Positions 19,710 through 62,376 are shown, counted from the first letter of the stretch. The stretch is 64,000 bases of DNA from Candidatus Omnitrophota bacterium (GCA_903860135.1 CAIOPG010000002.1:1192-65191); one strand, 5' to 3'. The notes: a model not told the origin generated them from the letters alone. Numbers and translations are program-made.

Positions 19710-22700
19710 ATGCATCGAAATTCTATTTTAACCCGCATCTATGCCATGATCACGGTATTTGCCTTTGGGGTGAATATGATCGGTCCCCTCTATGCGCAAT
19801 CCGGCCCATCATTCCTGCCGGACCCGGGGCATATGATCGCGTTAAGCCGCCCGTTTAATCCCTTGCTCCTCAAAGGGCTCAAGGTTTACCCGGACAATCC
19901 TTTCCGGTTTGAATTCATCCTCAATCCGGGCGATGCCAGCCTGGCAGGCCAGCCCCTGAAAGAAGCATCGGCACGCCTCATCAAATATTTCCTTGCCAGC
20001 CTCACGATCCCTGAAAAAGACCTTTGGGTTAACCTGTCTCCGTACGAAAAAAACCGCATCGTCCCCGAAACTTTCGGGCAAACCGAAATGGGGCGCGACT
20101 TGCTGGCGCAGGATTATCTCCTGAAACAGATAACCGCCTCGGCCATTTATCCGGAAAGCGACCTTGGCCAGCAATTCTGGCATAAAGTCTATGCCCAGGC
20201 ACAGCAAAAATACGGCACAACAGATATCCCGATCGACACCTTCAATAAAGTCTGGATCGTCCCCGCCAAAGCGGCCCTGTACGAAAATGCCGCCGCCGGC
20301 ACAGCCTACATAACGGGATCAAGTCTCAAGGTCATGCTGGAATCAGATTATAAGGCGATCACAGAGAATGAGTCATTCGCACGTAGGGGCGGGTCCGTGA
20401 CCCGCCCTCTTTTATCGGATACGCCAACACCTCAAGGCGTCGACCGCATGTCATCCGATATCGCCAAGAACGTCCTCCGCGAGTTCATCATCCCCGCGCT
20501 CGAGAAAGAAGTGAATACAGGAGAAAACTTTGCCCAACTGCGGCAGATCTATCAAGCCCTGATCCTGGCTACATGGTACAAACAAAAAGTAAAAAATTCT
20601 CTCCTGTCACGCGTTTATGTTGACCGGCATAAAATTACAGGCGTCCGTATCCCTGACCCCCGGGAATCCGAGAAAATCTGGAGCCGTTACGTCGAGGCAT
20701 TCCAACAGGGCGTGTTTAACTATATCCAGGAAACCCGGGATCCGGCAACAATGGAAACGATCCCCAGAAAATTCTTCGCCGGCGGGGTTGACGCGTCCGC
20801 CATCTCCACCATCATCGATGCCAGCGGATCGATCGCGCCTTCAGATGCCGCAGGGAACAACACCACGTTAAGCATTTTATTGGTTAAAACCAAGGATAAT
20901 GCCAGTCATGAACAGCAGGCACAATCTCTTTATGAAAGCATATGGCCGTCCCTCGTGCCCTGGGAAAAACTGCCGGCCATCAGCCAGAAAGTTTTTGAAT
21001 GGAGCCGGGGGAAGAACGATTGGGAACAATTATTAAAACTCCGATATTTCCATCCCAGATCATTTCTCCTGAGCCACCTCCCTGCTCTTGCAAGTTTTTT
21101 GGGATCACAACAGGATTGGATTAATCTCTATCCTTTTATAAAACACATTGCCTCTTTCGATGAACACAACCAGGATGTCTTATACAATAAAACACTGCCA
21201 GCCCTCTACGCTTGCTTCAAGGATCGCTTGCCGATCGAACAGATCCTTGTTATTGCCGGCTTATTAAAAAACGAAATCCCCTCTCAAGAGATTGAAGTAT
21301 TCATCAACACGTTCATGAAGCCTCATCTTGAAACAACACCCCTGAGCGTAGAAGATTTTATCGCTGAATCAAACCGACTTTTAGAATGGAACCAGTACCG
21401 GAGTATAAACAATTTTTATCCATTTATAGGAAGTGCCCTGTCCAAGGATGATATAACACCATTGCTGGCATCATCCCAAATATCAGAACCTGACAAATTC
21501 AAGCTGTTGACCGGTTTTTGCGTCACGCATCCTGAAGCGGCCGCCCAGGATATGTTGACATATTTCAATCAATTCAAGTCCGGGATCACTTTATCCCAGG
21601 CCTCCTGGCTTATACTTGCTTTCGGGAAAATAAAGACACCTGTCATATTGCCCTATATGATAAATCTCTGGAATAAATCCGATGACGACAATGACTATGA
21701 GAACGGCAAAATAATATTCTTATCAACCATAAAATATTGGCCCAGGAACCTTATTACTGCTCTCCTAAAGTCAGACGACATTCCGCCTTCCTTCGCTCTA
21801 GAGATGATGGCTACCGAGGCAGATAAACAATCTTTACAAGATGCCCCCAACGATCTTTGCCGCACCCTCTTTAAAATATCTTCTTATCAAGAGATCATCA
21901 AAAGCCTCAGAATACTTAATAGAATACCTGACGCCCTCATCTTAACCCCCTTGATAGATCGCCTTTTTCAATCGATGACCACGAGCATCCAGTTGTCTCT
22001 AGACCATGGCATCGGTGCAGAAGGATCAACAATTAACATTGCTAATTTGAAATCCATCGGCACTTTCCTGCACTTTTTCATCACCAACGCCCCTAACCTC
22101 GCCTATAATTGCAAATCATCCCTGACCCGCCTGATCCGCCGATTGCCTATAGGTAACCGGCAGATCAAGCGCGTGAAGGATATTGCTGACCAGCTGGTGG
22201 ACGCCGTCGGGGGCCGACGGCTTATCCTTGAGGGGGGGGCACATTTTATCGTAGACCTGCGCGACGAGATTCATAAGCACATCAACTTTCTGACCGTGTT
22301 CAAGGTCAAAGCCTACGCCCATTATCTATCGACAGGCGATCAAACCATGCTCCGAGCCATGGAAGTCACGATCGATGACGAAGCTCCATTCAGCAAGCTG
22401 TCCCTAATGCAAACTAATCGCATAACAAATGTAGAAACCATCCTCAACGAGCTTATAGAGAAAATGAATATCATTTTTAACGGCGGTGGGACAAATTCCA
22501 AAGAAGTAATCGTTAACTACAATCTTTCCATCCATCCCCTTAACATCGCATTACGGAACAGCTTTGATGCTGTATTGACCACATCCGAAACCCTCGACAC
22601 TCTTCTGTCCCAACCGTTAAACAACGACAGCCTTGTTGAAGGCTTGCGACTCATGACGCAACTGAAAGAATCCCTCGCCACCTTAAGAGCAGATGAACGC

Positions 22701-24845
22701 TACCGGGATGAACAACTGTTATTCCTCCTGCTCGACGTTGAACTCGAGACCTACCTTTATCGCCTGCTGGCCAAAATACCGCCGGAACAAGAGATGACGA
22801 TCCCCACCCTGCTGGCCATTCTTCATCCGGTCATCGGCCTGGCCCGGGAGAGTTTCAATATTCAAGCACAGGAAGAACTGGGCGTGATCAGCGATGAATT
22901 ACGGCAGATCATCGACGCTGAAAAAACCCCGGGGTCAACCGTCAACGGCTCTCCCCTGCGTGTATTTGCCATTGTCGAGCGCCTCCTGCGGCGGATCCGG
23001 CAGTTCAGCCAGGAAACCAGCGCGGTCTACCAGCCTATCGTCAACGACCAAACCCGAGGCCAAAATATCTTCGAAAAGGAAAAAATTGATGACGTTACGG
23101 CTGATCTTATCCGCGTGGAAAATCCTTATCAGCTTTCGCTGGTCGCGCAACAGCTCGAAGCTGTCCTTGCCCGGGAACTTCACCTGTCCTGGCTGGTGGC
23201 TCGTCCGGGAACAGGCCAGGGGCAGTTGATCCATGTGAAAGAATCTGACAATCTCCAGCAGGTGATCGACCAGTTGACCCAACCTGCCATCCTGATCGCG
23301 GAACGTATCCCGAATAATATCCTGCTAAACCCCTATGTCCGCGGCTATGTGACGCGCGAAGAACAGGGGGTCCTGTCGCATCCCGCCATACGTTCCGACA
23401 ACAATGCGCCGGTGGTCCTTGTCCAGGCGATCGGCAGTAAATACACGGAACTGATCGCCACAGCCGAGGCATCGCCGGATGCATTCTTCCAGATAACCGC
23501 CGCCGATAACGAGGTTGCTATCAACAAGATTGATACACTTGATCCAATGACGACCACCGCCCCCCAGGCCGCTATCCCCGTCGAGGCTGATCTCAGCATC
23601 AGGGGTCTGATCACTGATATTAATGCCTATACGCCGGAAACTGTCGGCAACAAAGGCTACAGCTTAAAACGCTTGCACGATGCCATCGAACGCCTGAAAG
23701 CCGCTGGTCTGATTCCCCAGAACTTCATTCTTTCGGTCCCCCAGAGCATTGCCTTGCCCTTTGGCTATTTTGAAGCGATCCTCGATGCCAATGGCGCCAT
23801 GGGCCAGCAGATCCGTACCTTACGGGAGCAGTTGAAGGCTCCCCCCGATGAGAATGACACCAAAGGCATCCTGATCCAGCTTGAACAACTGATCCTGCAA
23901 CTTGATATCGATCCCGAAATGATTGACACGATCGCTCACATCATCGGTGCTTCCATGGTGCGGTTGTGCCCCACGGTCGATGATCTTTCCAGGAATGCCG
24001 CCGCCGGTGTCTATGGCTCATTTGAACACGTGGCACGCGCTCAATTGGGCGACCATATCCGACGTGGCTACGCATCGTTATACACCCTCACGGCCTTCAT
24101 GGACAGGCGCCAGCATCAGATAGAGGAAGATAACGTTCACGCCGCGATGATTTTCCAGATCATGGCAACAGGCAATGCTTTTGTGGCTTTCAGCCAGGAC
24201 CCTACCCTTCAAAATGAAACGGATCGGCGGAACGCCATGCTGTTGGAAATGATCCCCGGGCTGGGCAAGACGCTCATGTCCGGCGAACCCGAATTCCAGG
24301 GATCCCCCCACCGCTTCAGATACTCCGTCAGCGCAGGCAATGCCCAGCGCCTGGCGTATGCCAACAAGAGCTACCGCCTTGTCGTCGACGCTGGGGTCTT
24401 GCAGGTGCGTTTGAATGATTACCGGCAGGATCCTTTAAGCCAGGAAGAAAATCCTTCATGGATCAAGGATCTGTTTGCGCTTCTTCGGGATATAACGGGC
24501 GATGCGACCATCGGCCGTGATATGGAAGGCTCCGTTGAGTTCAAAGACGGGATCTACTATGTGTTTCTACTGCAGGACCGTGACAATATAAAGTTCAATA
24601 CGACCAATACCGCCGGACAAACCGGAAAAGACGCCAAACGCTCCACCGCCAACCCGGAATATACAGGCGGTATTGACCTAAGGGCCCCGGCGTTAACACT
24701 CAACAAGAGCACCGTGCATTTTCAGTTTTCCCCCGATCAACTCGCCGCCTTCGAAAGCGCCCCCGGCCTGCGCCCCGTGATCCTCAAAGCCAGCCCGATC
24801 AAGGATCTGAAACTCTTCTTATCAACCCCCGCTGTTTCCAGATGA
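19710..24845 (+). CDS. Giant exported multidomain protein 1 (1711 aa): conserved N-terminal domain of unknown function, AT-rich variable core, PEP-utilizer phosphohistidine domain plus PPDK_N-type nucleotide-binding domain, conserved C-terminal tail
   Basis: Single uninterrupted ORF. Predicted signal peptide ...MIGPLYA|QS. The N-terminal ~330 aa are ~55-60% identical to the N-terminus of ORF 43155..47735. The C-terminal TGGIDL...APGLRPVI...DLKLFL tail is shared with that ORF. Confidence 0.8.
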   Translation: MHRNSILTRIYAMITVFAFGVNMIGPLYAQSGPSFLPDPGHMIALSRPFNPLLLKGLKVYPDNPFRFEFILNPGDASLAGQPLKEASARLIKYFLASLTIPEKDLWVNLSPYEKNRIVPETFGQTEMGRDLLAQDYLLKQITASAIYPESDLGQQFWHKVYAQAQQKYGTTDIPIDTFNKVWIVPAKAALYENAAAGTAYITGSSLKVMLESDYKAITENESFARRGGSVTRPLLSDTPTPQGVDRMSSDIAKNVLREFIIPALEKEVNTGENFAQLRQIYQALILATWYKQKVKNSLLSRVYVDRHKITGVRIPDPRESEKIWSRYVEAFQQGVFNYIQETRDPATMETIPRKFFAGGVDASAISTIIDASGSIAPSDAAGNNTTLSILLVKTKDNASHEQQAQSLYESIWPSLVPWEKLPAISQKVFEWSRGKNDWEQLLKLRYFHPRSFLLSHLPALASFLGSQQDWINLYPFIKHIASFDEHNQDVLYNKTLPALYACFKDRLPIEQILVIAGLLKNEIPSQEIEVFINTFMKPHLETTPLSVEDFIAESNRLLEWNQYRSINNFYPFIGSALSKDDITPLLASSQISEPDKFKLLTGFCVTHPEAAAQDMLTYFNQFKSGITLSQASWLILAFGKIKTPVILPYMINLWNKSDDDNDYENGKIIFLSTIKYWPRNLITALLKSDDIPPSFALEMMATEADKQSLQDAPNDLCRTLFKISSYQEIIKSLRILNRIPDALILTPLIDRLFQSMTTSIQLSLDHGIGAEGSTINIANLKSIGTFLHFFITNAPNLAYNCKSSLTRLIRRLPIGNRQIKRVKDIADQLVDAVGGRRLILEGGAHFIVDLRDEIHKHINFLTVFKVKAYAHYLSTGDQTMLRAMEVTIDDEAPFSKLSLMQTNRITNVETILNELIEKMNIIFNGGGTNSKEVIVNYNLSIHPLNIALRNSFDAVLTTSETLDTLLSQPLNNDSLVEGLRLMTQLKESLATLRADERYRDEQLLFLLLDVELETYLYRLLAKIPPEQEMTIPTLLAILHPVIGLARESFNIQAQEELGVISDELRQIIDAEKTPGSTVNGSPLRVFAIVERLLRRIRQFSQETSAVYQPIVNDQTRGQNIFEKEKIDDVTADLIRVENPYQLSLVAQQLEAVLARELHLSWLVARPGTGQGQLIHVKESDNLQQVIDQLTQPAILIAERIPNNILLNPYVRGYVTREEQGVLSHPAIRSDNNAPVVLVQAIGSKYTELIATAEASPDAFFQITAADNEVAINKIDTLDPMTTTAPQAAIPVEADLSIRGLITDINAYTPETVGNKGYSLKRLHDAIERLKAAGLIPQNFILSVPQSIALPFGYFEAILDANGAMGQQIRTLREQLKAPPDENDTKGILIQLEQLILQLDIDPEMIDTIAHIIGASMVRLCPTVDDLSRNAAAGVYGSFEHVARAQLGDHIRRGYASLYTLTAFMDRRQHQIEEDNVHAAMIFQIMATGNAFVAFSQDPTLQNETDRRNAMLLEMIPGLGKTLMSGEPEFQGSPHRFRYSVSAGNAQRLAYANKSYRLVVDAGVLQVRLNDYRQDPLSQEENPSWIKDLFALLRDITGDATIGRDMEGSVEFKDGIYYVFLLQDRDNIKFNTTNTAGQTGKDAKRSTANPEYTGGIDLRAPALTLNKSTVHFQFSPDQLAAFESAPGLRPVILKASPIKDLKLFLSTPAVSR
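23290..23520 (+). other. PEP-utilizing-enzyme mobile (phosphohistidine) domain within giant protein 1
   Basis: VARPGTGQGQLIHV...PAILIAERIPNNILLNPYVRGYVTREEQGVLSHPAIRSDNNAPVVLV aligns to the consensus G.VTe.GG.TSHAAI.ARE.GIPAVVG. The predicted catalytic His is in LSHPAI. Confidence 0.7.
23620..24580 (+). other. PPDK_N / PEP-synthase-type ATP(nucleotide)-binding domain within giant protein 1
   Basis: ETVGNKGYSLKRL (cf. LGGKNASLGEM), IPQNFILS (cf. VPNGFATT), VRLCPTVDDLSRNAAAGVYGSF (cf. VRSSATAEDMPDASFAGQQETF), AFVAFSQDP...LLEMIPGLGKTLMSGE (cf. GVMFSRDP...IEAAWGLGEAVVSG). Confidence 0.75.
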
Positions 24846-42686: not shown

Positions 42687-43166
42687 ATGACACAGCTCCA
42701 ACACCTCGCGCAACACTTGACCGCCAGCCGCCAAACTTTAGCCACCGCCGAATCCTGCACCGGCGGGCTGATCGCCCATACCCTGACCAATATCCCCGGC
42801 GCTTCGGCCTGGTTTAAAGGCGGGGTCGTGGCTTATGCCAATACGGCCAAATCTGATATGCTGGGAGTCGCTCCTGAGCTGATCCTGCAACACGGCGCGG
42901 TCAGTGCCCCAGTGGCAGAAGCCATGGCTCAGGGTGCACGCCTGCGCTTTGATACCACTTTCGCCATCGCCACAACCGGCATCGCCGGTCCATCGGGCGG
43001 CACACCCGCCAAGCCCGTGGGCCTTGTCTTCATCGCCGTTGCCTCGGCCAAAACAACAACCGCCTCAAAATTTCTTTTTACCGGAACCCGCGCCCGGATC
43101 AAACGCCAAACCCTGGCCACAGCCATCAAACTGCTCAACGCACGACTGTCACTTTCAATGCTGTGA
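42687..43166 (+). CDS. CinA C-terminal domain protein (nicotinamide-nucleotide amidohydrolase PncC-like)
   Basis: 159 aa. LATAESCTGGLIAHTLTNIPGASAWFKGGVVAYAN matches CinA_C. Confidence 0.8.
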   Translation: MTQLQHLAQHLTASRQTLATAESCTGGLIAHTLTNIPGASAWFKGGVVAYANTAKSDMLGVAPELILQHGAVSAPVAEAMAQGARLRFDTTFAIATTGIAGPSGGTPAKPVGLVFIAVASAKTTTASKFLFTGTRARIKRQTLATAIKLLNARLSLSML

Positions 43167-46100
43167 AGACGGCATTCCCAGAAACGCCGGCAGATCCACC
43201 GCATCCTCCACGCCAATAATCACCGGCACAAATCCCGGCGCCGCCGCCAACCGCGCCACCTCAGCCGGGTCAACATCAAAAACATCCCCCATCGCACCCG
43301 CTGTCGAGATCCGCATCCGGTCAGCCGTCAGATCAATACCACCGGTGCCATTCGCCCTGTCAATCACTGGACTCTTCAACAATTCACTTTGATTAACTAT
43401 CCTCTTTAAGATACTATCCGCTGTTAAATTACCCTCTTGACTCGCCTTTTCCAAAGCACGAATAATACCTAAACTATTTTCAACCAGAAACTTATTCATT
43501 TCCTCAACGTTATTTATCCCGCTCGGGAGAATTTTACGGATACGCGCACTATATCTAACCCCTGAAGAATTTACCTTGTTTTTCCCTTGCAACAATAAAT
43601 CATGAATTGCAAAAGCGAAGATCTGATGCGCAAGGAATCGACTGTTCGGATCCAGGGATATCCATAAAAACAAAGAAGGCTGTTTATCTTTGTAATTTTC
43701 AACAACCTGAATTGCAAGAATATCTGAACTTTTCATGGAAACAGCTACATAAATATCCGTTCCCGTCTTCGTATTAGATAATTCATCAACCAAAACCAAC
43801 AATCCCAATATTTTGCCAGTCATAGCGAATTGAGGATTAATTGTAATGACCTTTTTTAATTTTTCCAGAAAAAGGGTTCTCTTGTTTCCTTTTAAATCAC
43901 TGAATCTAACAACATCAGCCAATAAATATTGCCCATCACGTTCAAAAACAACCTTATTCACTAATTCACCAGTAAACAAATTAAACGCACCCTCATCTTT
44001 CAACTCATTATTTGAAGCAAAGTCAGCGACTGTATTGCGTTTTACTACATCATTTTGACCCTGAGTTGTCGTTGCGATCTCGCGCAAATAGGCTGTTTCC
44101 CGCGTATGCCGGGCCATAAGGTCATCGCCTGATGCTACGGTGATGTAGGGATTTTGTTGCTGGATCAAGCCCAGCATCGCCGTAGCAGATGCCTGTTCTT
44201 TTTGGGAGACTTCTTTTGTTTCAGCCATGCGCCATCCCAATATCGCTTTAGAATAAATCGTCCGTAACAACACGCTGTTCAAGCGCGCAACTTCCTGATC
44301 ATTCAAAGAATTTTCATCCTTGACAGCCTTTTGCAACAAAACTTTAGCATCCTCGTCCAGCCAGCGCTTGTCAGCATCTTCGACATAACGATAAAAATCC
44401 CGCCGTTGCACGATGGCATTAATCAAATTCTTCGGCGTGCTCCGTGGATAAAGGGTCTTTAATAAAAATCTTTTGAATCGTTTCCCATCCGAAGTATTAT
44501 TCAGTTTGATCCATTCTTGTGCATCAATAAGGTCCCTTGATTGAACGCTAAGAGTCTTAATAATGGTATTAATTGCGTGCAAGTGGTCATCACTTAATGC
44601 ATGGGCCTGCTTTAACTTAACAAAAGCAATAAATGATGCTTCGCTTTTATTCAAAGCGTCAATGAGCTCTTCCATAGAAGTCCCTGACGAAATGGACATC
44701 TTCGTATCAGATTCAATTAAACGAGTCAATGCCTGTAGTTGATCAAAATCTTCAAATTCAGCCACTTTCAAATCCAGAAAGCCATTAATCACTTGCATAA
44801 AATCACTCTTTAAAACATCCTTCAACGAAGCATTTGTAAGCTTCGCTAATTCTTGAAGCATTAACTGATTAGTCTTCTGGTGCTTATCGTCCCCGATGGC
44901 CTCACGCAATAATTCAACATCAAGGTCGCCCGGCGTGACCACAAAAGAATTCTTCATAAAATTATGCCTTATAAGGGCGCGCACCTGACTCCGGTTCAAC
45001 GGTTCATTTATCTTGCGAGGCTTTTTGTTCTGAATATCCATCAACCAACTAACACGCTGGCCGGTCTTCGTTTCCCCTTTCACTAGAGCAGCGTTCAATT
45101 CCTGAAGAAAACTTTCAGATCCCAGCAATGCATTAACCCTGTCAATGTCTGTATCTGCCGACGGGACATTAAATCCGGCACGCTCAATCGCCGCAATAAC
45201 CTCTACCACCCTGGCATTGCTGAATTTATCGCCGCGCCTTTGAAACTCTGGCTTTAAAAAAAACGAAAGGCTTTGCAATAATCCATGGATCACACGATGC
45301 GCATTATGCCATAAAAATACAAACCCTTCTTTTTCGATCTGTTCCTGGTCATGCCAGGCAAACGCAGTGACCTGATCGACCGCCGAAAAACTACCTTGCC
45401 GGTAGAAATTTATCCGCGATCCCATCACGAGATGACCTGTTTTCTTTTCAACAACCTGAACAGCCATAATCTCCAACTGCCCCTTCTTGTTTCTTTCTAC
45501 AGCCGCATAAACCTCGCGTTGGCCCAACAACCCCTTGGCAATGGTTTTAGCCAATGAAAGCGTCGAAAAAACATCCCCGGCATTGATGGCCCCCATACTC
45601 CGGCTCTGCCTCACCAAGGCCTTGACAAATGCTTGCCGCAATAGCTTCGCCTCCTCACTTTTCGTCGCGCTCACCTTGACCACATCCACAGCCCGGTACT
45701 CGCCCCCGGGGCTTTGCATGATCACTTTCTTTTCCAAAGCGCCATTGAACAGACGAACATCCTCGGTTGAATTCTCCTTTAAACTTGCCTGTCCATCCGA
45801 TCCTTGTTGTTCGGACAAGCTGTGTCCCAAGTTTTTATTGATTCTATTATTCAAATCAGGGGCATTCTGACCGGGGATCAACAAATTCTCATTGTCTCTC
45901 AATTGCTCCAACATCTTGTTTGCTGACACATTCCCCGCAAGCGCATCCGCGTTCAGTTCCACAATAATGTTATCCTGCACATACTTCAGCATACCCGGGA
46001 GATTGCTACGCATCGACGCCCTCTTCACCTCTCTAGATGACGCTCCAGGGGGCACATTGCTGAACCCAAAAGCCCCTCCCGCATCCATCATATCCAAAGA

Positions 46101-47735
46101 CACACCAGCGGCATTGAGCTCATTGATAACCAAAAATAATAACCGTTGCGCCACGGCCATCTGCCCTTCCTCGGCTACCCAGGGCATAATGGATATAGGC
46201 AACTTATTAGTATTTTTCCAAGTCATTTTCCTGGGCCTGCGCACCGGCTGAACCGCCAGTATCCGCCCATCAGGCATAACCGCCGCATATAAATCAATTT
46301 CCTGCGCTATGGCGTATTTCTCCCTGGTCAATGCATCCAGCAAATGCGCAAGAGTTATGAACGATGTTGCTATACTTTGCTTATGGAGCCACTGCTTTTT
46401 CAGAGACTCGATCAATTTTTCCCCTGCGGGTGTCGCCACATTTCTGATCCTGACGACCTTAACAAATTGATAAACACCCTCGACCTTGGCTACGACGGGT
46501 TTCGTCAGTACTTCTCCCCCCCGGGCAGTAAAAATAGCTGCCTGCTCAGCGCTTATCTGCACGTTGACCTGCCTCGATTGAACAGGAAGCTCGGCAGGGT
46601 CAACTGTACTGACCATGGTCATAGCCGTGATCTTGGCCAAAACCCCGCCCGCGAAATATTTACGCGGGATCGTCTCGCGTGTCAGGGGGTCATACTCTTC
46701 GCGGATATAATTATAAACACCTTTTTTGAAAGCCTCCACATAACGGCCCCAGATTTTGACCGCTTCTTGCGGATCGTTGATATTCACGCCCGCAACCTTC
46801 CGGCGGTCGACATACACCCGTGACAACAGGCTGTCCTTGACTTTCTTCTTGTACCAGGTAGCCAGGATCAGCGAGTGGTAAACCTGACGTAATTGAGTAA
46901 AATTCCGGCCTTCGTTCACCTCTTTTTCAAGGACAGGAATAATGACTTGCCGGAGAATCTCCTTGACATCATCCGAGGCAGACGCCGTCGGTGCAACATA
47001 CCCCGCCTGTTGACGTGCCGCCAGATAATCCGAATCCAGCATGACCTTCAGGCGCGATTTGACCACATAAGCCGTATGGGTTGGCGCATTCTCGTAAACA
47101 ACCACTTCGGCAGGGACGATCCATACCTTGTTAAACGTATCGACCGGAATATTGGCACTGCCGAACTTCTGCGCCGCCAGGGCATAGATCTTCTGCCAGA
47201 ACAGCTTGCCGGTGTCCCCTTCAGGATAGATCAGGCTTGAGGTGATCTGCTTCAGGAAATAATCCTGCGCCAGGAGGTCGCGGCCCATCTCGGTCTGGCC
47301 AAAGGCTTCCGGGACAATGCGGTCTTTCTCATAAGGGCTGAGATTGACCCACAGATCATCTTCCGGTATGGTCAAGGCGGCCAGAAAATACCGGATCAAC
47401 CGGCTGGCCGTCGCACGTTCAGAGGCCTCGGGAACAGCCCCGGCAGCCTCACCGGGATCGAGGATAAAATCGAAGCGGAACGGTTCCTTAACATAAAGCT
47501 TAACCCCATTCAGCACCGCAGGATGACACGCGTTGCTTAAGCCCACCAGTCTTCCGGGCAACGGCATCACAACCTCGGCATACGCCAGCGGAAAAAAAGA
47601 TTCCGTTAAAAATACCACACAAATGAACAAAGCCACAATCCGCCGCATGCCTACTCCCTTTTGCCAATAATGCCTATTTTTATTGAAATGACCACCGATG
47701 AATAAAAATATAACATATAGAATCATGGTTAACAA
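43155..47735 (-). CDS. Giant exported multidomain protein 2 (~1500 aa), a paralogue of giant protein 1: conserved N-terminal domain, three internal repeats, AT-rich variable core, conserved C-terminal tail
   Basis: Uninterrupted ORF. The likely start is MRRIVALFICVV... (about 47651) with signal peptide ...PLAYA|EV. The N-terminus is homologous to ORF 19710..24845. The C-terminal TGGIDL...APGFVPVI...DLPAFL tail is shared. Confidence 0.8.
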   Translation of the reverse strand: MLTMILYVIFLFIGGHFNKNRHYWQKGVGMRRIVALFICVVFLTESFFPLAYAEVVMPLPGRLVGLSNACHPAVLNGVKLYVKEPFRFDFILDPGEAAGAVPEASERATASRLIRYFLAALTIPEDDLWVNLSPYEKDRIVPEAFGQTEMGRDLLAQDYFLKQITSSLIYPEGDTGKLFWQKIYALAAQKFGSANIPVDTFNKVWIVPAEVVVYENAPTHTAYVVKSRLKVMLDSDYLAARQQAGYVAPTASASDDVKEILRQVIIPVLEKEVNEGRNFTQLRQVYHSLILATWYKKKVKDSLLSRVYVDRRKVAGVNINDPQEAVKIWGRYVEAFKKGVYNYIREEYDPLTRETIPRKYFAGGVLAKITAMTMVSTVDPAELPVQSRQVNVQISAEQAAIFTARGGEVLTKPVVAKVEGVYQFVKVVRIRNVATPAGEKLIESLKKQWLHKQSIATSFITLAHLLDALTREKYAIAQEIDLYAAVMPDGRILAVQPVRRPRKMTWKNTNKLPISIMPWVAEEGQMAVAQRLLFLVINELNAAGVSLDMMDAGGAFGFSNVPPGASSREVKRASMRSNLPGMLKYVQDNIIVELNADALAGNVSANKMLEQLRDNENLLIPGQNAPDLNNRINKNLGHSLSEQQGSDGQASLKENSTEDVRLFNGALEKKVIMQSPGGEYRAVDVVKVSATKSEEAKLLRQAFVKALVRQSRSMGAINAGDVFSTLSLAKTIAKGLLGQREVYAAVERNKKGQLEIMAVQVVEKKTGHLVMGSRINFYRQGSFSAVDQVTAFAWHDQEQIEKEGFVFLWHNAHRVIHGLLQSLSFFLKPEFQRRGDKFSNARVVEVIAAIERAGFNVPSADTDIDRVNALLGSESFLQELNAALVKGETKTGQRVSWLMDIQNKKPRKINEPLNRSQVRALIRHNFMKNSFVVTPGDLDVELLREAIGDDKHQKTNQLMLQELAKLTNASLKDVLKSDFMQVINGFLDLKVAEFEDFDQLQALTRLIESDTKMSISSGTSMEELIDALNKSEASFIAFVKLKQAHALSDDHLHAINTIIKTLSVQSRDLIDAQEWIKLNNTSDGKRFKRFLLKTLYPRSTPKNLINAIVQRRDFYRYVEDADKRWLDEDAKVLLQKAVKDENSLNDQEVARLNSVLLRTIYSKAILGWRMAETKEVSQKEQASATAMLGLIQQQNPYITVASGDDLMARHTRETAYLREIATTTQGQNDVVKRNTVADFASNNELKDEGAFNLFTGELVNKVVFERDGQYLLADVVRFSDLKGNKRTLFLEKLKKVITINPQFAMTGKILGLLVLVDELSNTKTGTDIYVAVSMKSSDILAIQVVENYKDKQPSLFLWISLDPNSRFLAHQIFAFAIHDLLLQGKNKVNSSGVRYSARIRKILPSGINNVEEMNKFLVENSLGIIRALEKASQEGNLTADSILKRIVNQSELLKSPVIDRANGTGGIDLTADRMRISTAGAMGDVFDVDPAEVARLAAAPGFVPVIIGVEDAVDLPAFLGMPSSQH

Positions 47736-57353: not shown

Positions 57354-57596
57354 CTAATCCGCATGATTTGCAATCATCCCGGTGACAGCTGATCCATACC
57401 CATCAACAAAGGACATGGAATTTTTTAATTGGATCAATTCACCAGCTGGCAAATTCAATACCTTGCCTGTGCCTTCAACAAAAACACCGTGCTTAAGCAA
57501 AACACCACCAATCAGCACAACAATCACGGTGCTGGTAAGCAGAAGATATTCGATAACGTTTTGACCGCGGCTTGAGAATTTTTTTAGCATACGCAC
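57354..57596 (-). CDS. Flp/Fap-family (type IVb, Tad) pilin-like protein, orphan
   Basis: RGQNVIEYLLLTSTVIVVLIGGVL resembles the Flp motif G-x4-EY plus a hydrophobic helix. No tad/cpa genes are nearby. Confidence 0.4.
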   Translation of the reverse strand: MRMLKKFSSRGQNVIEYLLLTSTVIVVLIGGVLLKHGVFVEGTGKVLNLPAGELIQLKNSMSFVDGYGSAVTGMIANHAD

Positions 57597-57680: not shown

Positions 57681-58028
57681 TCAAACATCCAGTCGCAGGG
57701 AAAGGTTATAAATAAAAGGCAGGCGAAAGATCTTGCCACGCAAAGCTTGGATTATGCCCCAAAAAGACACCACCCCAAAAAAGAATAAGGCCGGCTTCAT
57801 CAGAAACGGCAACACAATGCTCACAATAAAGACCGCCATCTCGCACAAGAAGATCGCCAACCCCTGCCGCCCATGAAATCGTACAAAAACATCATCTTTC
57901 TTGCGTACAAGCGGAACAATGCAAAGGATGAAACAATACGCCAGTAGCGCGTAAAGACGGCTCTCATCGAGAGGCGGCGGGGTTTCCGAAAGCCCGTCAC
58001 GGTTACCGCAAGGAACTGGATTAACCAT
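57681..58028 (-). CDS. DUF4870-family small membrane protein
   Basis: YALLAYCFILCIVPL...FVRFHGRQGLAIFL matches the conserved DUF4870 pattern. Confidence 0.5.
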   Translation of the reverse strand: MVNPVPCGNRDGLSETPPPLDESRLYALLAYCFILCIVPLVRKKDDVFVRFHGRQGLAIFLCEMAVFIVSIVLPFLMKPALFFFGVVSFWGIIQALRGKIFRLPFIYNLSLRLDV

Positions 58029-59148
58029 GCGCCTCGACCTCAAGGATGGAATTCATATCCCCAAAACCGTTGGACTCACGGCGTTCATGCGCAGGATCAG
58101 CCTGCCAGCGGCCATCCACAATGAACTGATAGCGGTACAAACCCGCAGGCAGTGCCATCCGCGCAGTCCAGACATCCCCTTCGCGCGTCAAACGGCAAGC
58201 CTCATCGATCGCCCAGGCATTGAAACTTCCGGAAACATATACCGAATGAGCCTCTGGCGCATTAATGCTGAACGTCGTCACCATGGCTTCCATTTCACGT
58301 GTCACAATATCCGTCATCCGCGCTGAGAACTCAACTGTTTCAACAGGCGCGACCACAACAGCCTCAACCGCCTGCTTGGGAGCGAACGCCCCGCCCTCGA
58401 ACGCGATCAGCTCCTTGGCTAACGTGTAATAATCCTTGGCGCCACGGCAATATTTATCGTAAGCCATAACAGGTTTTCCCTCGACGACCGACTCCTTCAG
58501 CTTGACATTGGTGTGCACGATCGTTGTCAACAGCATATCCCCGAACTGACGCTTGATCTTGTCGAGCATCGCAAAGGAGTGCCTCAGGCGCGAATCAAAC
58601 ATGGTGATGAGTACGCGCGGTGTCACCGGATGATTCAGGCGGTCGCGGATCAGGGAGATAATATCCATCAGGTGCTCAACACCCTGCACAGAGAAACGGC
58701 TCATCTCGACGGGGATCATGATCTCGTGGCTGGCGCGCAGCGCGTTGACGGTCAGGAACCCGAGGCTCGGCGGACAATCGATGATAATATAATCATAGGT
58801 ATCCTTGAGCGTCGCGATGCTTTCGACAAGCTTCATCTCACGGCCGATCTCGTCGGCAAGTTCCTGTTCAAGGGTCCCCACCAGCACATTCGAAGGGATG
58901 ATGTCAAAGTTCGTGTCGACGCGCTGAATGATATCCCGCAGAGCAAGCCGGCGCGGCGCTATCTTGGAAATAACATTATAAATGCTGTTCTTATCATCGC
59001 GGTTGAGGCCGAGGGTCGCGTGCGCCTGGGGATCAATATCTATGAGAAGTGTTTTTTTGCCGTTGGCAGCCAGTGCCGACACCAGGTTAATGGCCGTCGT
59101 TGTCTTGCCACAGCCACCCTTTTGATTCGCAACCGATATGATCTTCAT
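58021..59148 (-). CDS. ParA/Soj-family ATPase fused to a C-terminal CBM48 (AMPK-beta/glycogen-binding) domain
   Basis: Deviant Walker A KGGCGKTTTAINL at the N-terminus. The C-terminal ~90 aa, FSINAPEAHSVYVSGSFNAWA...YRYQFIVDGRWQADPAHE, match the AMPK1_CBM/CBM48 glycogen-binding fold. Confidence 0.7.
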   Translation of the reverse strand: MKIISVANQKGGCGKTTTAINLVSALAANGKKTLLIDIDPQAHATLGLNRDDKNSIYNVISKIAPRRLALRDIIQRVDTNFDIIPSNVLVGTLEQELADEIGREMKLVESIATLKDTYDYIIIDCPPSLGFLTVNALRASHEIMIPVEMSRFSVQGVEHLMDIISLIRDRLNHPVTPRVLITMFDSRLRHSFAMLDKIKRQFGDMLLTTIVHTNVKLKESVVEGKPVMAYDKYCRGAKDYYTLAKELIAFEGGAFAPKQAVEAVVVAPVETVEFSARMTDIVTREMEAMVTTFSINAPEAHSVYVSGSFNAWAIDEACRLTREGDVWTARMALPAGLYRYQFIVDGRWQADPAHERRESNGFGDMNSILEVEAHG

Positions 59149-59167
59149 GTTTCCCCCTCCGCTTGTG

Positions 59168-59740
59168 CTAGTTGGAAAAACTGATGTTATCGACAAGAAC
59201 CGTCCCCGCCGGATCTTTCGTATTCCACGCCTCGACCACGAACGCGATGTCCTTAATGAACTTCCAGTCCGTCAGGTTCATCTGCGCGAAAGAGATCGAA
59301 TAATCCTGCCAGTTGTTGCCGATGCCCTCGAGATAATACGCCGCCTGTTCTGCCCTGGCATTGCTGACAACCACTTTCAATATGCCGGGATTCCCGTTCA
59401 TGCTGCGCAAGGATAAATTCAAATGACTGTATTTGGTAACATCCATCGCCGGCACCGCGATCGTCAGATTCTGGATCTGCGGATACTTCCCACCGACGGA
59501 GTAACTCAAGCGTATCGGCGAATTGTTCAGCGCGTAAATAACGCGGCTTTTAAATATATCCCGTCGCTGGGTCAAGAATGCTGTCAAGCCATAAACAACA
59601 CTGACCAGAATGAACGCCGTGATCAACAAATTAATAAGGCGCCAGGCATTGGGGCGGGGCTCGGGTTTTTTCTCTTCAACGACTTCCCGTTTACTCAGAT
59701 AAACCTTGGCCAAATGGTCGTAGATCTCGTCACGATTCAT
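59168..59740 (-). CDS. Hypothetical membrane-anchored protein with C-terminal beta-sandwich-like domain
   Basis: N-terminal TM LINLLITAFILVSVVYGL. Its 3' end overlaps the ParA-CBM48 ORF start. Confidence 0.35.
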   Translation of the reverse strand: MNRDEIYDHLAKVYLSKREVVEEKKPEPRPNAWRLINLLITAFILVSVVYGLTAFLTQRRDIFKSRVIYALNNSPIRLSYSVGGKYPQIQNLTIAVPAMDVTKYSHLNLSLRSMNGNPGILKVVVSNARAEQAAYYLEGIGNNWQDYSISFAQMNLTDWKFIKDIAFVVEAWNTKDPAGTVLVDNISFSN

Positions 59741-59858
59741 ACAACTGTCAACTTCCGACGGAAGATAGGATTTTTGATTAGGATCAAAATTACTTTTTTA
59801 TAATAACAAATAAAGAAATGAATTTAAAATAATATCTGGTATTTTTTATCGCGCGCAA

Positions 59859-59894
59859 TAAAAAAGCCCCGGTATCGCTACCGGGGCTTTTGTG
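59859..59894 (-). terminator. Rho-independent terminator after the OMP gene (bidirectional-looking)
   Basis: GCCCCGGTA-tcgc-TACCGGGGC with U-runs on both strands. Minus strand reads ...GCCCCGGUAGCGAUACCGGGGCUUUUUUAUUG. Confidence 0.5.
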
Positions 59895-59913: not shown

Positions 59914-61233
59914 TTAGAACGCGACGCTGACGCTCGAGAGGAGCTGAGTCGCCGAATCCTTGTTCACTGCCGCGAAGGCATTGCCCGGAGCAAAGTAACC
60001 CGCGCTCACGCCGAACTTCACATCCTCGGTATACGCATACGTCAGGTCGAGGTCAACTTCGTTGCCAAGGCCCTTTTCACCATTAGCAGCAACAGCCTGT
60101 GTGCCACCTGTCGGCTGATTGATCGATGTGACCGCTGCCTTCTGCGCCTTGTTCACATTGTACCAGGTCAACTTCGTGGTCAGATCCTGAACCGGTGTGA
60201 CTTCAAACGCGGCTTCGGCAACGCTGAGGTTGCTGGAACCGAACAGGCTGTCATAGATACGACCAACATTCTGATTCTCATACACAGAATCAAAAGACCT
60301 GGTGTTGCTGTCCGTAAGATCCTTGTCGCCCGAAAGATACGTATAACCGGCAGAAAGAACCGGCTTCACATCCTTAAGGACAGGCAGTGCATAGTTTACC
60401 TTACCCTGAGCACCAAACGCCTTGATCTTGTTCGTCAAAGAGCCCGTGATACCAGCAGTACCCGTTTCATAAGCGCCTTCCAACTGCACATTCAAACCCT
60501 CGATCGGATTCGTACTGACGCGCAAACCAGGAACGTAAAGGTTCGAGGTCTTTGTGTCAGGATACGTGATCGCACTCTTGTCATGCTTGACGAACGTATA
60601 GGCCTCAACAACCGTGCTGAACTTGTCGAGCTTATAGTTCAGGTTGATACCATAAAGATCGGTATCATTGTTATCGTTGGTACCAAGCGTGCTGTTCTCG
60701 TTGATCTTGGAAGCAAACAAATCAACCGTGAGCGGATCATAGCTCAACACAGCCTTGACCGCGTCAAAATTACCATTGCCGGCGAGATCTGTCGCAACAC
60801 CGGTATAGTAATTCTTGTTAGCGGCATTATAGCCAACCAAAAACTGGTTGCCGTAGGCAAGTGTCTGACGACCGATCGTTACCGTAAGAGGAGAATAGAG
60901 CAACTCCTTCATGGTCACGTAGGCAGCATCAAGATAAAATGAATTGTTATCTGAATTGCCGGCAACATTCTGTAAACCCCATGCACCTTCATTGGTGAGC
61001 TTGATCGTGGTGGACACATTGTCCGTCAGATCAGCCGCAACGCCAACGCTGGTGGTTGTGGCAACGAGATTCTGCGCTGTCTCAGCACCAGCACCGGCGC
61101 CAAGGTCAAAACTCTTACGAATAACAGACGTGGTGGACAACGCGCCGCTGACCTTCACGTTCTGCACGGATGCGAACGCAGGTGCCGCCATCAGGGCGAC
61201 GAGCGCGAGCATCATGGTGATTTTCTTAATCAT
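59914..61233 (-). CDS. Outer-membrane beta-barrel protein (putative porin)
   Basis: Signal peptide MIKKITMMLALVALMAAPAFA. Alternating beta-strands rich in aromatic girdle residues. C-terminus ...SSVSVAF. Confidence 0.5.
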   Translation of the reverse strand: MIKKITMMLALVALMAAPAFASVQNVKVSGALSTTSVIRKSFDLGAGAGAETAQNLVATTTSVGVAADLTDNVSTTIKLTNEGAWGLQNVAGNSDNNSFYLDAAYVTMKELLYSPLTVTIGRQTLAYGNQFLVGYNAANKNYYTGVATDLAGNGNFDAVKAVLSYDPLTVDLFASKINENSTLGTNDNNDTDLYGINLNYKLDKFSTVVEAYTFVKHDKSAITYPDTKTSNLYVPGLRVSTNPIEGLNVQLEGAYETGTAGITGSLTNKIKAFGAQGKVNYALPVLKDVKPVLSAGYTYLSGDKDLTDSNTRSFDSVYENQNVGRIYDSLFGSSNLSVAEAAFEVTPVQDLTTKLTWYNVNKAQKAAVTSINQPTGGTQAVAANGEKGLGNEVDLDLTYAYTEDVKFGVSAGYFAPGNAFAAVNKDSATQLLSSVSVAF

Positions 61234-61457
61234 GTGATTCTCCTTAAGATTAGTATAAAAAAGCAACTAGTTATATGTTTACTAGATTATGTACTATTGA
61301 TCCCTATAAACGATGCCCCCTGACCCAGATCCTTTAAAAAACCTTAACACCTCCACCTCCTTTCATGGTCGGACTAGGAACATCTTAGGGTTTAAGATAG
61401 CGTTATCTTCCCACAGCTAACTGGTGGTGTCAATGAAATTCAGGAAATTTTAATGGG

Positions 61458-61671: not shown

Positions 61672-62376
61672 TCATTTACTGCCAGTCACCCGGATGGCAA
61701 GGCCTTGCTTAAATTCAGCGGGGGCATCATAACCAAGCTTCTCGGCTTTTTCAAGATAATATTGCGCATCCTGGTATTCATCCATACCAGCCAGGATGAT
61801 CGCCAGATTCGCCAAAGCGTCCATATAGGCCGGATCTAACGCCACCGCGCGCTTAAAAGCAGCCACCGCCTTATCCTGGTGCCCCAGCCGTGACTGCACA
61901 TTGCCCATATTAAAATACAAGACAGGATTCTTTGACGCCGCCAATTCACCTTTGGTATAATATTCCAGCGCCTGAGCCAGGCTCCCGTCAACTTCTTTAA
62001 TATAACCCAGATGCAGGTAAACATCCGGATTATTCAGGCCTTTATCGATGGCGTTCAGATAAAGGTCTTCGGCCTTCGAAGGCATCCCCAAATGAAAATA
62101 GATCGCCCCCAACCTGAAATAAGCAGGCGCAAAACCCTGGGTGCGGGCAAGGACGTCCTCATAAGCACTGATGGCTTCCGGCAAATGCCCCTTCTGCTCC
62201 GCATCAAGGGCCGCGGCCATTAAGCGTTGAACATCAGCCGTTTGCGGTTGAACCGAAGGCATCGCCGAAGAAAAATCAGGCCTGAAAAGGACCGCTGTCA
62301 AAACAGTCAAAGAAAAAACAAGGGTACCAACCAGGAAAAAATTAGAAAACTGGTTATTGTTCCGTACTGGCTTCAT
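61672..62376 (-). CDS. Tetratricopeptide-repeat protein with N-terminal TM anchor
   Basis: TM FFLVGTLVFSLTVLTAVLF followed by several TPR-like 34-aa units (AYFRLGAIYFHLG..., LHLGYIKEVDG..., YFNMGNVQSRLG...). Confidence 0.7.
   Translation of the reverse strand: MKPVRNNNQFSNFFLVGTLVFSLTVLTAVLFRPDFSSAMPSVQPQTADVQRLMAAALDAEQKGHLPEAISAYEDVLARTQGFAPAYFRLGAIYFHLGMPSKAEDLYLNAIDKGLNNPDVYLHLGYIKEVDGSLAQALEYYTKGELAASKNPVLYFNMGNVQSRLGHQDKAVAAFKRAVALDPAYMDALANLAIILAGMDEYQDAQYYLEKAEKLGYDAPAEFKQGLAIRVTGSK

Follow-up and report, generated by a model that had tools for sequence, protein, structure and literature searches.

A 64,000-nt stretch from the assembly of a Candidatus Omnitrophota bacterium (GCA_903860135.1, CAIOPG010000002.1:1192-65191; hereafter the window, meaning the whole stretch that was analyzed) encodes a protein in which a Soj-like ParA ATPase is joined through a flexible linker to a carbohydrate-binding module (CBM) of the CBM48 family, closest to that of the AMPK beta subunit. 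The upstream gene encodes a bitopic inner-membrane protein, here termed TM191, with a proposed ParA-binding peptide at its cytoplasmic N-terminus, and the downstream gene encodes a polytopic membrane protein that resembles DUF4870. We tentatively favor the reading that a ParA-type ATPase with its own alpha-glucan-binding module, together with a membrane-anchored partner peptide, may constitute a spatial-organization system. Judged from sequence, the family is a Soj-derived ATPase that is always accompanied by a partner with a ParB-like peptide and that carries a tethered CBM48 module whose sugar site is predicted to be intact; binding of glucan, DNA and partner, as well as dimerization, is inferred from alignments.

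All three open reading frames (ORFs) lie on the minus strand (59740..59168, 59148..58021 and 58028..57681), at the coordinates given in the initial annotation of this DNA, and its description of a three-gene, membrane-associated operon containing a ParA/Soj ATPase fused to CBM48 holds. It had also placed the fusion gene in overlap with both neighbors. The downstream overlap stands, in that the fusion stop codon overlaps the start of the DUF4870-like gene (ATGGTTAA, 58028..58021), but upstream the end of the TM191 gene and the start of the fusion are separated by a 19-nt gap that holds a strong Shine-Dalgarno sequence, GGAGGGGG, and an overlap arises only if the fusion ORF is extended to a TTG at 59196. 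A terminator-like hairpin, matched in folding by 0 of 200 shuffled sequences, ends the porin gene that lies further upstream, and it is followed by a promoter-like site in the AT-rich spacer between this terminator and the ATG at 59740; the three genes therefore appear to form their own transcription unit in this genome. Coordinates of these and the other features are collected in Table 1.

The fusion is genuine and lies far outside what chance would produce. On a single polypeptide, Pfam detects AAA_31 (residues 1-173, E = 3.4e-53), CbiA (E = 3e-20), AMPK1_CBM (PF16561; residues 299-373, 55.3 bits against a threshold of 26.8) and CBM_48 (PF02922; 24.7 bits, threshold 22.4), in agreement with both domain assignments of the initial annotation. 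In a collection of 5.8 billion proteins, the best 120 protein clusters are all full length, at 58-99% identity, and all carry PF16561; their named members are nearly all Candidatus Omnitrophota and are annotated as 'AAA family ATPase' or 'chromosome partitioning protein'. When one genome per GTDB species was scanned, 80 loci were obtained; in 77 the alignment extends to approximately residue 370 and hence through the CBM, and the remaining three are truncated, two by the end of a contig. Because QKGGCGKT and H[TVI]NVKLKE served as its seed peptides, the scan is biased towards this ATPase subfamily, and the invariance of those motifs therefore adds no weight. Across 82 non-redundant fusions, the set over which residue conservation was counted, the linker is between 9 and 100 residues long and keeps the frame in every case. 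Homologues likewise begin with MKII. Given the continuous frame, the strong Shine-Dalgarno sequence, the recurrence of the same architecture in 80 independent assemblies and the in-frame variation of the linker, an ORF-calling artifact created from two genes was ruled out.

Loci at 47-86% identity belong to Omnitrophota, some of them being labelled 'Planctomycetales', a label that we regard as wrong. The loci at 34-44% identity comprise further Omnitrophota plus metagenome-assembled genomes (MAGs) that carry the labels delta proteobacterium, Phycisphaerae/Sedimentisphaerales, Myxococcales, Gemmatimonadales, Eisenbacteria and Thermodesulfobacteriota. Within Omnitrophota, for which nearly all knowledge comes from MAGs, the module shows vertical conservation, and diverged copies of the fusion occur in Planctomycetota, Myxococcota, Gemmatimonadota and other MAGs. 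A plasmid partition gene was also considered and rejected: the ATPase matches at least 5000 PLSDB records, but coverage of the query reaches 80% in none of them, so that the CBM fusion is not found there.

The N-terminal domain carries the deviant Walker A motif on which its earlier assignment to ParA/Soj was based, and its best matches by sequence and structure are among these proteins. The closest sequence in the PDB is Myxococcus xanthus ParA (8ray, 164 bits), followed by HpSoj (6iub) and Thermus Soj (1wcv); identity to bona fide Soj/ParA structures is 34-41%, and Foldseek of the ATPase gives E = 3e-20 with TM-scores of 0.72-0.78, normalized to the Soj/ParA targets. The Walker A lysines K10 and K15 and the Walker A' and B aspartates D37, D39 and D124 are invariant in the 82 fusions, so the ATPase is predicted to be active. 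Membership among BcsQ or BY-kinases was rejected, the scores being far below cutoffs (TIGR03371, 75.4 bits against an equivalog cutoff of 157.85; Pfam CBP_BcsQ, 45.9 bits), and no bcs genes were found in the window or in the loci.

Two further surfaces of Soj/ParA can be traced in the fusion. K216 aligns with R238 of M. xanthus ParA, the position of Soj R189 (the numbering offset was taken from D60A, which is A41 of the crystal chain), and the R238E mutant of M. xanthus ParA has lost non-specific DNA binding. By alignment, K216 and R235 fall where Soj/ParA has its DNA-binding arginines, and in the clade of the window protein K216, K218, R235 and K238 are close to invariant. Position 216 is Lys or Arg in 52 of 53 close-clade proteins and Ala, Ser or Thr in 13 of 29 distant fusions. 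From these residues, nucleoid binding may reasonably be expected of the window protein, although not of the whole family. The second surface is the hydrophobic pocket of ParA in which the ParB motif docks, formed by V116, L150, L152, L155, L187 and L192. When mapped by hand, the five leucines align with L129, F131, V134, L166 and L171 of the fusion, all invariant or near-invariant, and V116 aligns with an invariant Q95. The pocket is constant, whereas the ParA surface region 92-104 varies systematically among fusions with the three types of partner described below.

The identity of the C-terminal module as an AMPK-beta-type CBM48, proposed initially from its sequence, is borne out by both Pfam profiles and by the closest solved sequences, which are the CBMs of AMPK beta1 (1z0m, E = 5e-10) and beta2, followed by neopullulanase, SEX4 and GlgB. 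An AlphaFold2 (AF2) model predicts residues 289-371 to be an all-beta sandwich, with block-mean values of the predicted local distance difference test (pLDDT) mostly between 86 and 94; when the whole fusion model was searched with Foldseek, every match was to the ATPase part. We take W100, K126, W133, L146 and N150 of AMPK beta1 to be the cyclodextrin contacts in 1Z0M, and their equivalents in the fusion (Table 1) include two invariant tryptophans. Conservation of the CBM equals that of the ATPase, and sugar binding by the module is likely. In the linker, pLDDT falls below 50 at residues 254-274, a helix is predicted at 276-286, and the connection between CBM and ATPase is modelled without confidence. 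Because the linker is disordered and ranges so widely in length, the CBM is probably held on a tether rather than docked as a regulatory domain.

A search of a representative library with the CBM by itself gave 8700 matches at E ≤ 1e-3, indicating that this type of CBM is widespread; the best 150 of these showed no fusions, which is not a census of architectures. The top-scoring relatives are tandem arrays of 2 to 18 repeats; a large family has 3-18 tandem copies of this CBM48 type, most commonly four in a protein of ~480 aa. Of four such proteins inspected (P0246, P0249, P0252 and P0283), three have signal peptides and are predicted to be secreted, and the fourth looks N-terminally truncated. 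Tandem, secreted relatives fit a genuine carbohydrate-binding family.

The neighborhoods of the fusion gene also contain alpha-glucan enzymes. We read up to 10 kb around each match in 86 loci, 57 of which form the close clade. In 32 of them (the L022-L055 clade), a gene for a 520-aa cytoplasmic GH57 enzyme (PF03065, E = 6.6e-67; 312 bits to A. aeolicus-type GH57 amylopullulanase, 8zyi and 9iht) lies between an AlgE-type 'Alginate_exp' porin gene, which is upstream of the module in 40 loci, and the TM191 gene, with a median GH57-TM191 gap of 58 nt over 30 measurable pairs. Glycogen synthesis is commonly encoded in Omnitrophota MAGs. The recurrence of the GH57 neighbor and the widely reported capacity for glycogen synthesis support glycogen as the ligand. 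A link to glycogen or another polysaccharide, as envisaged at the outset, is thus supported by conserved sugar contacts, by GH57 in 32 loci and by glycogen synthesis in the phylum; the positioning of granules remains a step beyond these observations.

The C-terminal module could instead be an Ig-like protein-binding domain that binds no sugar and contacts TM191, the DUF4870-like protein or another protein, its conserved aromatics forming a peptide interface. E-set and CBM48-like folds have been reused for protein contacts, the AMPK CBM also packs against the kinase lobe, and the NCBIfam T9SS plug protein model gives a weak score over the CBM region; moreover, no glg gene was found among the scanned ORFs of the window. 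This explanation is nevertheless improbable, given that the invariant residues are precisely the AMPK-beta sugar contacts, across phyla and across all three partner types, that the nearest relatives are tandem CBM48 repeats, largely secreted among those inspected, and that adjacency to GH57 is recurrent.

We turn to TM191 as the likely partner of the ATPase, a role that was absent from the initial annotation. The TM191 gene is directly upstream of the fusion in 57 of 57 close loci, with a median gap of 21 nt. A Pfam scan of TM191 gave no match. The family comprises 189 proteins, whose named sources are all Omnitrophota except for one labelled Elusimicrobia, and one homologue is named 'CIA30 family' by NCBI. 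The AF2 model (overall pLDDT 82) has helices at residues 3-19 and 31-65, followed by a beta-sandwich with pLDDT of ~90 over residues 80-190, and Foldseek against the PDB retrieves CBM11 (1v0a, E = 2.9e-7), CBM4-2, CBM16, CBM30 and NDUFAF1/CIA30 (7zkq), upholding the earlier call of a membrane-anchored, beta-sandwich-like protein. The flanks of the transmembrane (TM) helix contain on average 5.9 Lys and Arg on the N-terminal side versus 2.5 on the C-terminal side, the former being the larger in 52 of 57 homologues, and by the positive-inside rule the N-terminus is therefore placed in the cytoplasm.

The most conserved stretch of TM191 is this cytoplasmic peptide, M-(T/N)-RDEIYDHLAKVYLGKR. In 37 sequences, down to 46% identity, M1, E5, I6, Y7, D8, H9, L10, A11, V13, Y14, L15 and K17 are invariant, and I6, L10, V13 and Y14 are spaced i, i+4, i+7 and i+8, as are L11, L15, L18 and I19 of ParB. 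These features are consistent with docking of TM191 in the conserved pocket of the ATPase.

Two other kinds of partner are found in more distant loci. In ten of them the upstream gene encodes TM2, a distant relative of TM191 with the same architecture, the beta-sandwiches of the two being homologous (hhalign probability 91%, E = 1e-6); most TM2 proteins have in common an N-terminal motif, E.LA..YF. In seven loci, which we call clade B, there is no membrane partner and a MinD-like protein is encoded downstream of the fusion. Six of these seven MinD-like proteins begin with a ParB-type sequence, KLG(R/K)GL..(V/I/F)..(F/W)L(S), and the Walker A motif is degenerate in some members; in four loci a NucS_C/PD-(D/E)XK-like protein follows, giving a conserved three-gene variant. 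In one clade B locus, L077 from a Thermodesulfobacteriota MAG, a stand-alone CBM48 of 101 aa (L077:6337-6642, minus strand) is encoded just downstream of the ParA-CBM48 module and adjoins a gene for a GH57 + BE_C glycogen branching enzyme (L077:6676-8256, minus strand). Twelve distant fusions have no recognized partner, and Pfam scans of their neighbors revealed nothing related to glycogen. An additional family, f2, is encoded downstream of the module in 44 loci (for example, L022:7458-7856 and L005:9460-9975) and is absent from the window. Its N-terminal half is extremely rich in Lys and Arg, and its conserved C-terminal part is a small beta-barrel (THYFPHV..AAVIKLK..GD.I.IKGHTTDF; weak GTP_EFTU_D2 match); f2 might belong to this system as a part that binds the nucleoid or polyanions.

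The neighborhoods bear as well on whether the fusion is simply a chromosomal Soj/ParA with an accessory domain, serving chromosome segregation or replication control. Its ~40% identity to Soj is the same as that between Soj orthologues of different phyla, the module sits in a housekeeping block (S15, PNPase, FtsK and RodZ), and clade B partners carry a ParB-type LGRGL peptide. In four TM2-type loci (L056, L059, L060 and L067, three of them with a recognized TM2), moreover, the module lies between a purQ-like gene and LOG-family and mnmG/gidA-like genes, all identified by N-terminal sequence only; surroundings of mnmG/gidA are the classical soj-spo0J neighborhood, which hints at descent of the fusion from a chromosomal soj. 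However, no parB adjoins the fusion in the 86 loci, a ParB-box motif was found in no ORF of these loci (~0.8 Mb of flanks) or of the window, parS-like sites were found neither in the loci nor in the window, and NCBIfam ParA_partition (NF041546) scores 110.5 bits, below its cutoff of 180. A ParABS locus was ruled out on these grounds. Since the partner is, in addition, a membrane protein, and since the fusion also occurs in MAGs of Myxococcales, whose model species has its own essential ParAB, a function as an ordinary Soj seems quite unlikely.

The third gene was initially labelled DUF4870, a label that holds only in part. The window protein scores 19.3 bits against Pfam DUF4870 (PF09685), below the threshold of 25, but the family is matched by 14 of 33 orthologues (E ≤ 0.01; lowest E = 2.7e-7). 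This gene follows the fusion in 33 of 57 close loci with a median gap of -1 nt, and the two genes are translationally coupled. Such coupling, along with the strict linkage to TM191, whose only invariant part is cytoplasmic, could mean that the cargo of the ATPase is an envelope complex made up of TM191, the DUF4870-like protein and perhaps the porin. The ATPase would then place or space this membrane module along the cell, much like BcsQ, TadZ and ParC in the case of other envelope machines, and CBM48 would be an AMPK-like glycogen sensor that modulates the ATPase. The CBP_BcsQ match, the synteny of the porin and of an adjoining TPR gene, and the fact that the closest solved CBM is the regulatory module of AMPK beta would all be accounted for. 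Against this, the long, disordered and variable linker is better suited to a tether than to an allosteric domain, and AF2 gives no confident connection between CBM and ATPase; the DUF4870-like gene is missing from 24 of the 57 close loci, a terminator separates the porin in this genome, and the partner in clade B is soluble. On balance we regard positioning of an envelope complex as unlikely, although somewhat less so than the explanations based on a protein-binding domain or on chromosomal Soj.

Under the tentatively preferred reading of a glucan-binding ParA, the three genes would encode a spatial organizer whose ATPase holds its own cargo-binding module and does not rely on an adaptor alone. 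ATP would lead to the usual ParA sandwich dimer, which, in the clade of the window protein, would bind the nucleoid non-specifically via the K216 and R235 positions. The two tethered CBM48 modules of each dimer could bind cytoplasmic alpha-1,4/1,6-glucan (glycogen), and many dimers would tether a glycogen particle, or enzymes on the particle such as the co-encoded GH57, to the nucleoid, with the result that glycogen would be spread through the cell and inherited by both daughters. The N-terminal helix of TM191 would dock in the hydrophobic pocket at the dimer's edge, like the N-terminal peptide of ParB, and docking might lead either to ATP hydrolysis and release or to capture of the dimer at the membrane, such that a fixed envelope protein would set the place of glycogen. 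The most speculative step is that the outward CBM11-like domain of TM191, together with the porin, might couple the system to periplasmic glycans.

Several points weigh against this mechanism. The equivalent of the AMPK K126 contact is Gln in the window protein. The TM2 clade has consensus Ala at position 216 and Ser at 235, so the nucleoid would not be a universal matrix for the family. TM191 has D8-H9 in place of the Arg at the center of the ParB motif, a residue required for stimulation of the ATPase and dispensable for binding (the invariant K17 is nearby, as is K12, which is present in 29 of 37 sequences and otherwise Q, S or N); TM191 may therefore only bind the ATPase. In the sub-clade to which the window belongs (L001-L021), GH57 does not adjoin the module, and neither glg nor GH57 genes were found among the scanned window ORFs of at least 150 aa. 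The model leaves the roles of the DUF4870-like protein and of the outward beta-sandwich unexplained, and many Omnitrophota cells are ultra-small, so that active positioning of storage granules is not obviously needed.

Table 1. Features of the ParA-CBM48 locus and its surroundings, with equivalents of the AMPK beta1 sugar contacts and examples of clade B loci
Feature	Coordinates	Strand	Remarks
ParA-CBM48 fusion, 375 aa	58021..59148	-	stop codon 58023..58021; continuous frame, no internal stop
Soj-like ParA ATPase domain, residues 1-253	58390..59148	-	AAA_31 E 3.4e-53
Deviant Walker A, KGGCGKTT	59121..59098	-	motif position within the ATPase domain
Flexible linker, residues 254-288	58285..58389	-	short conserved helix (FS.RM..LV)
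CBM48 / AMPK-beta-type module, residues 289-373	58030..58284	-	AMPK1_CBM 55.3 bits, CBM_48 24.7 bits
AMPK beta1 W100 = fusion W312			invariant, 82/82
AMPK beta1 W133 = fusion W348			invariant, 82/82
AMPK beta1 N150 = fusion 366			N or D
AMPK beta1 K126 = fusion 341			Q in window protein; K/R in most distant members
AMPK beta1 L146 = fusion 362			F/Y in most
Shine-Dalgarno of fusion gene, GGAGGGGG	59153..59160	-	4 nt ahead of ATG at 59148
TM191, 190-aa bitopic inner-membrane protein, candidate ATPase partner	59168..59740	-	
TM191 cytoplasmic N-terminal helix MNRDEIYDHLAKVYLSKR, proposed ParA-binding peptide, 18 residues	59687..59740	-	
TM191 transmembrane helix, ~residues 33-58, N-in/C-out	59567..59644	-	
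TM191 extracytoplasmic beta-sandwich, CBM11/CBM4/CIA30-like jelly roll	59171..59533	-	
115-aa polytopic membrane protein, divergent DUF4870 (MamF/MmsF-like)	57681..58028	-	start overlaps fusion stop
Promoter-like site, TTTAAA, 17-nt spacer, TG-TATTAT	59800..59828	-	consensus match only
Terminator-like hairpin and U-run ending porin gene	59860..59892	-	-23 kcal/mol, z = -6.2
AlgE-type 'Alginate_exp' outer-membrane beta-barrel (porin)	59914..61266	-	PF13372 E 8e-31
Clade B examples	L062:7128-8748, L080:7150-8741, L086:7180-8647, L077:4476-6219		

Beyond the three genes, the porin is a syntenic neighbor whose membership of the module is uncertain. It adjoins a gene (61672..62376, minus strand) for a TPR protein whose N-terminus is a membrane anchor or signal. 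The porin and TPR pair resembles the AlgK-AlgE, BcsC and PgaA pairing of polysaccharide export and is syntenic with the module in many Omnitrophota; no glycosyltransferase was found near this pair. On the other side of the module, a small ORF (57354..57590, minus strand) with a good Shine-Dalgarno sequence begins MLKKFSSRGQNVIEYLLL and looks like a Flp-type (Tad) pilin prepeptide, and a Pfam scan of it gave no match.

Elsewhere in the window, two giant ORFs, of 1711 aa (19710..24845, plus strand) and 1526 aa (43155..47735, minus strand), have in common an N-terminal module of ~360 aa at 58% identity, which starts like a signal peptide, and a C-terminal motif of ~60 aa (GGIDL...APGF.PVI). More than 3900 large proteins, all from Omnitrophota where named, have this head at 46-61% identity, and several may be encoded on one contig. 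The middles of these proteins are unrelated, and include methyltransferases, SNF2 helicases, HATPase, peptidase M48, HEAT/TPR and PPDK_N. The giant ORFs look like members of a family found throughout the phylum, in which head and tail are common and the cargo varies. Residues 1160-1627 of the 1711-aa ORF contain a weak match to GWD1_pHisD (18.9 bits, threshold 27) followed by PPDK_N (E = 8.5e-17), the order found in plant glucan-water dikinases, and several homologues also carry PF22973. The idea that this ORF encodes a cytoplasmic glucan-water dikinase, which would have favored granule biology, was downgraded in view of the huge common-head, common-tail family and the signal-peptide-like start.

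ParA/MinD ATPases place chromosomes, plasmids, carboxysomes, chemoreceptor arrays, flagella and division sites, and, if the proposed reading of the fusion is correct, storage polysaccharide would join this list of actively organized cargos. The distribution of glycogen between daughter cells bears on aging and survival. The proposed system is minimal, consisting of one ATPase and one 18-residue peptide, and its vertical conservation makes it a handle on the cell biology of Omnitrophota. The three interchangeable partner types (TM191, TM2 and the MinD-like proteins with LGRGL) would amount to a natural experiment on the evolution of ParA-partner specificity. Full-text searches of the literature found no description of a ParA-CBM48 fusion or of active glycogen positioning in bacteria. 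The fullest claim is that this is the first dedicated ATP-driven system for the placement and inheritance of glycogen, a storage polymer that is not a protein; that its ParA bears its own carbohydrate-binding cargo module and takes its regulatory peptide from a bitopic envelope protein with an outward, glycan-binding-like domain, wiring the status of envelope or periplasmic glycans to storage; and that it belongs to the core of Omnitrophota and is scattered over at least five other phyla. This claim is doubtful.

Compared with known systems, the fusion is most similar to Soj/ParA (8RAY, 6IUB and 1WCV/2BEK) in its fold, deviant Walker A motif, Walker A' and B aspartates, degree of identity and peptide pocket and, in the clade of the window protein, in basic residues at the positions for DNA binding. 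It differs from them in the C-terminal CBM48 on a linker, the lack of an adjacent parB or parS, the bitopic membrane partner and the sub-cutoff ParA_partition score. BcsQ likewise ties a ParA/MinD fold to a polysaccharide-related envelope system and is matched at 45.9 (CBP_BcsQ) and 75 bits (TIGR03371), but the fusion stays below the TIGR03371 cutoff, has no bcs genes nearby and finds its best sequence and structure matches in Soj. With McdA/McdB and the orphan ParA/MinD systems (PpfA-TlpT, ParC-ParP, PomXYZ and MipZ) it has in common an ATPase encoded away from parB, an N-terminal peptide of a neighboring candidate partner and a proposed cargo other than DNA, and McdA structures are among its Foldseek matches. 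To our knowledge, cargo in known ParA/MinD systems is recognized by a separate adaptor protein, and in McdA/McdB-type systems this recognition resides in the partner or adaptor, whereas here the ATPase bears the carbohydrate module and the partner is membrane-embedded.

The C-terminal module is in turn like the AMPK-beta CBM and other CAZy CBM48 members (SEX4, the GlgB N-domain and plant PTST) in sequence family, predicted beta-sandwich and the Trp pair plus Asn, and plant PTST is alike also in that its CBM48 belongs to a non-catalytic protein, as here, where it would direct something to alpha-glucan. Unlike in these proteins, CBM48 is here carried by a P-loop positioning ATPase and not by a kinase scaffold, phosphatase, branching enzyme or coiled coil, and the K126 equivalent is Q, R or K. 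PhaM, which is not an ATPase, tethers polyhydroxybutyrate (PHB) granules to the nucleoid and thereby ensures their inheritance by both daughters; the proposed system would similarly hold a storage polymer on the nucleoid, but ATP would gate the attachment and a partner would regulate it. What sets the system apart from the known ParA/MinD positioning ATPases is a built-in, putatively carbohydrate-binding cargo module and a membrane-anchored candidate partner peptide.

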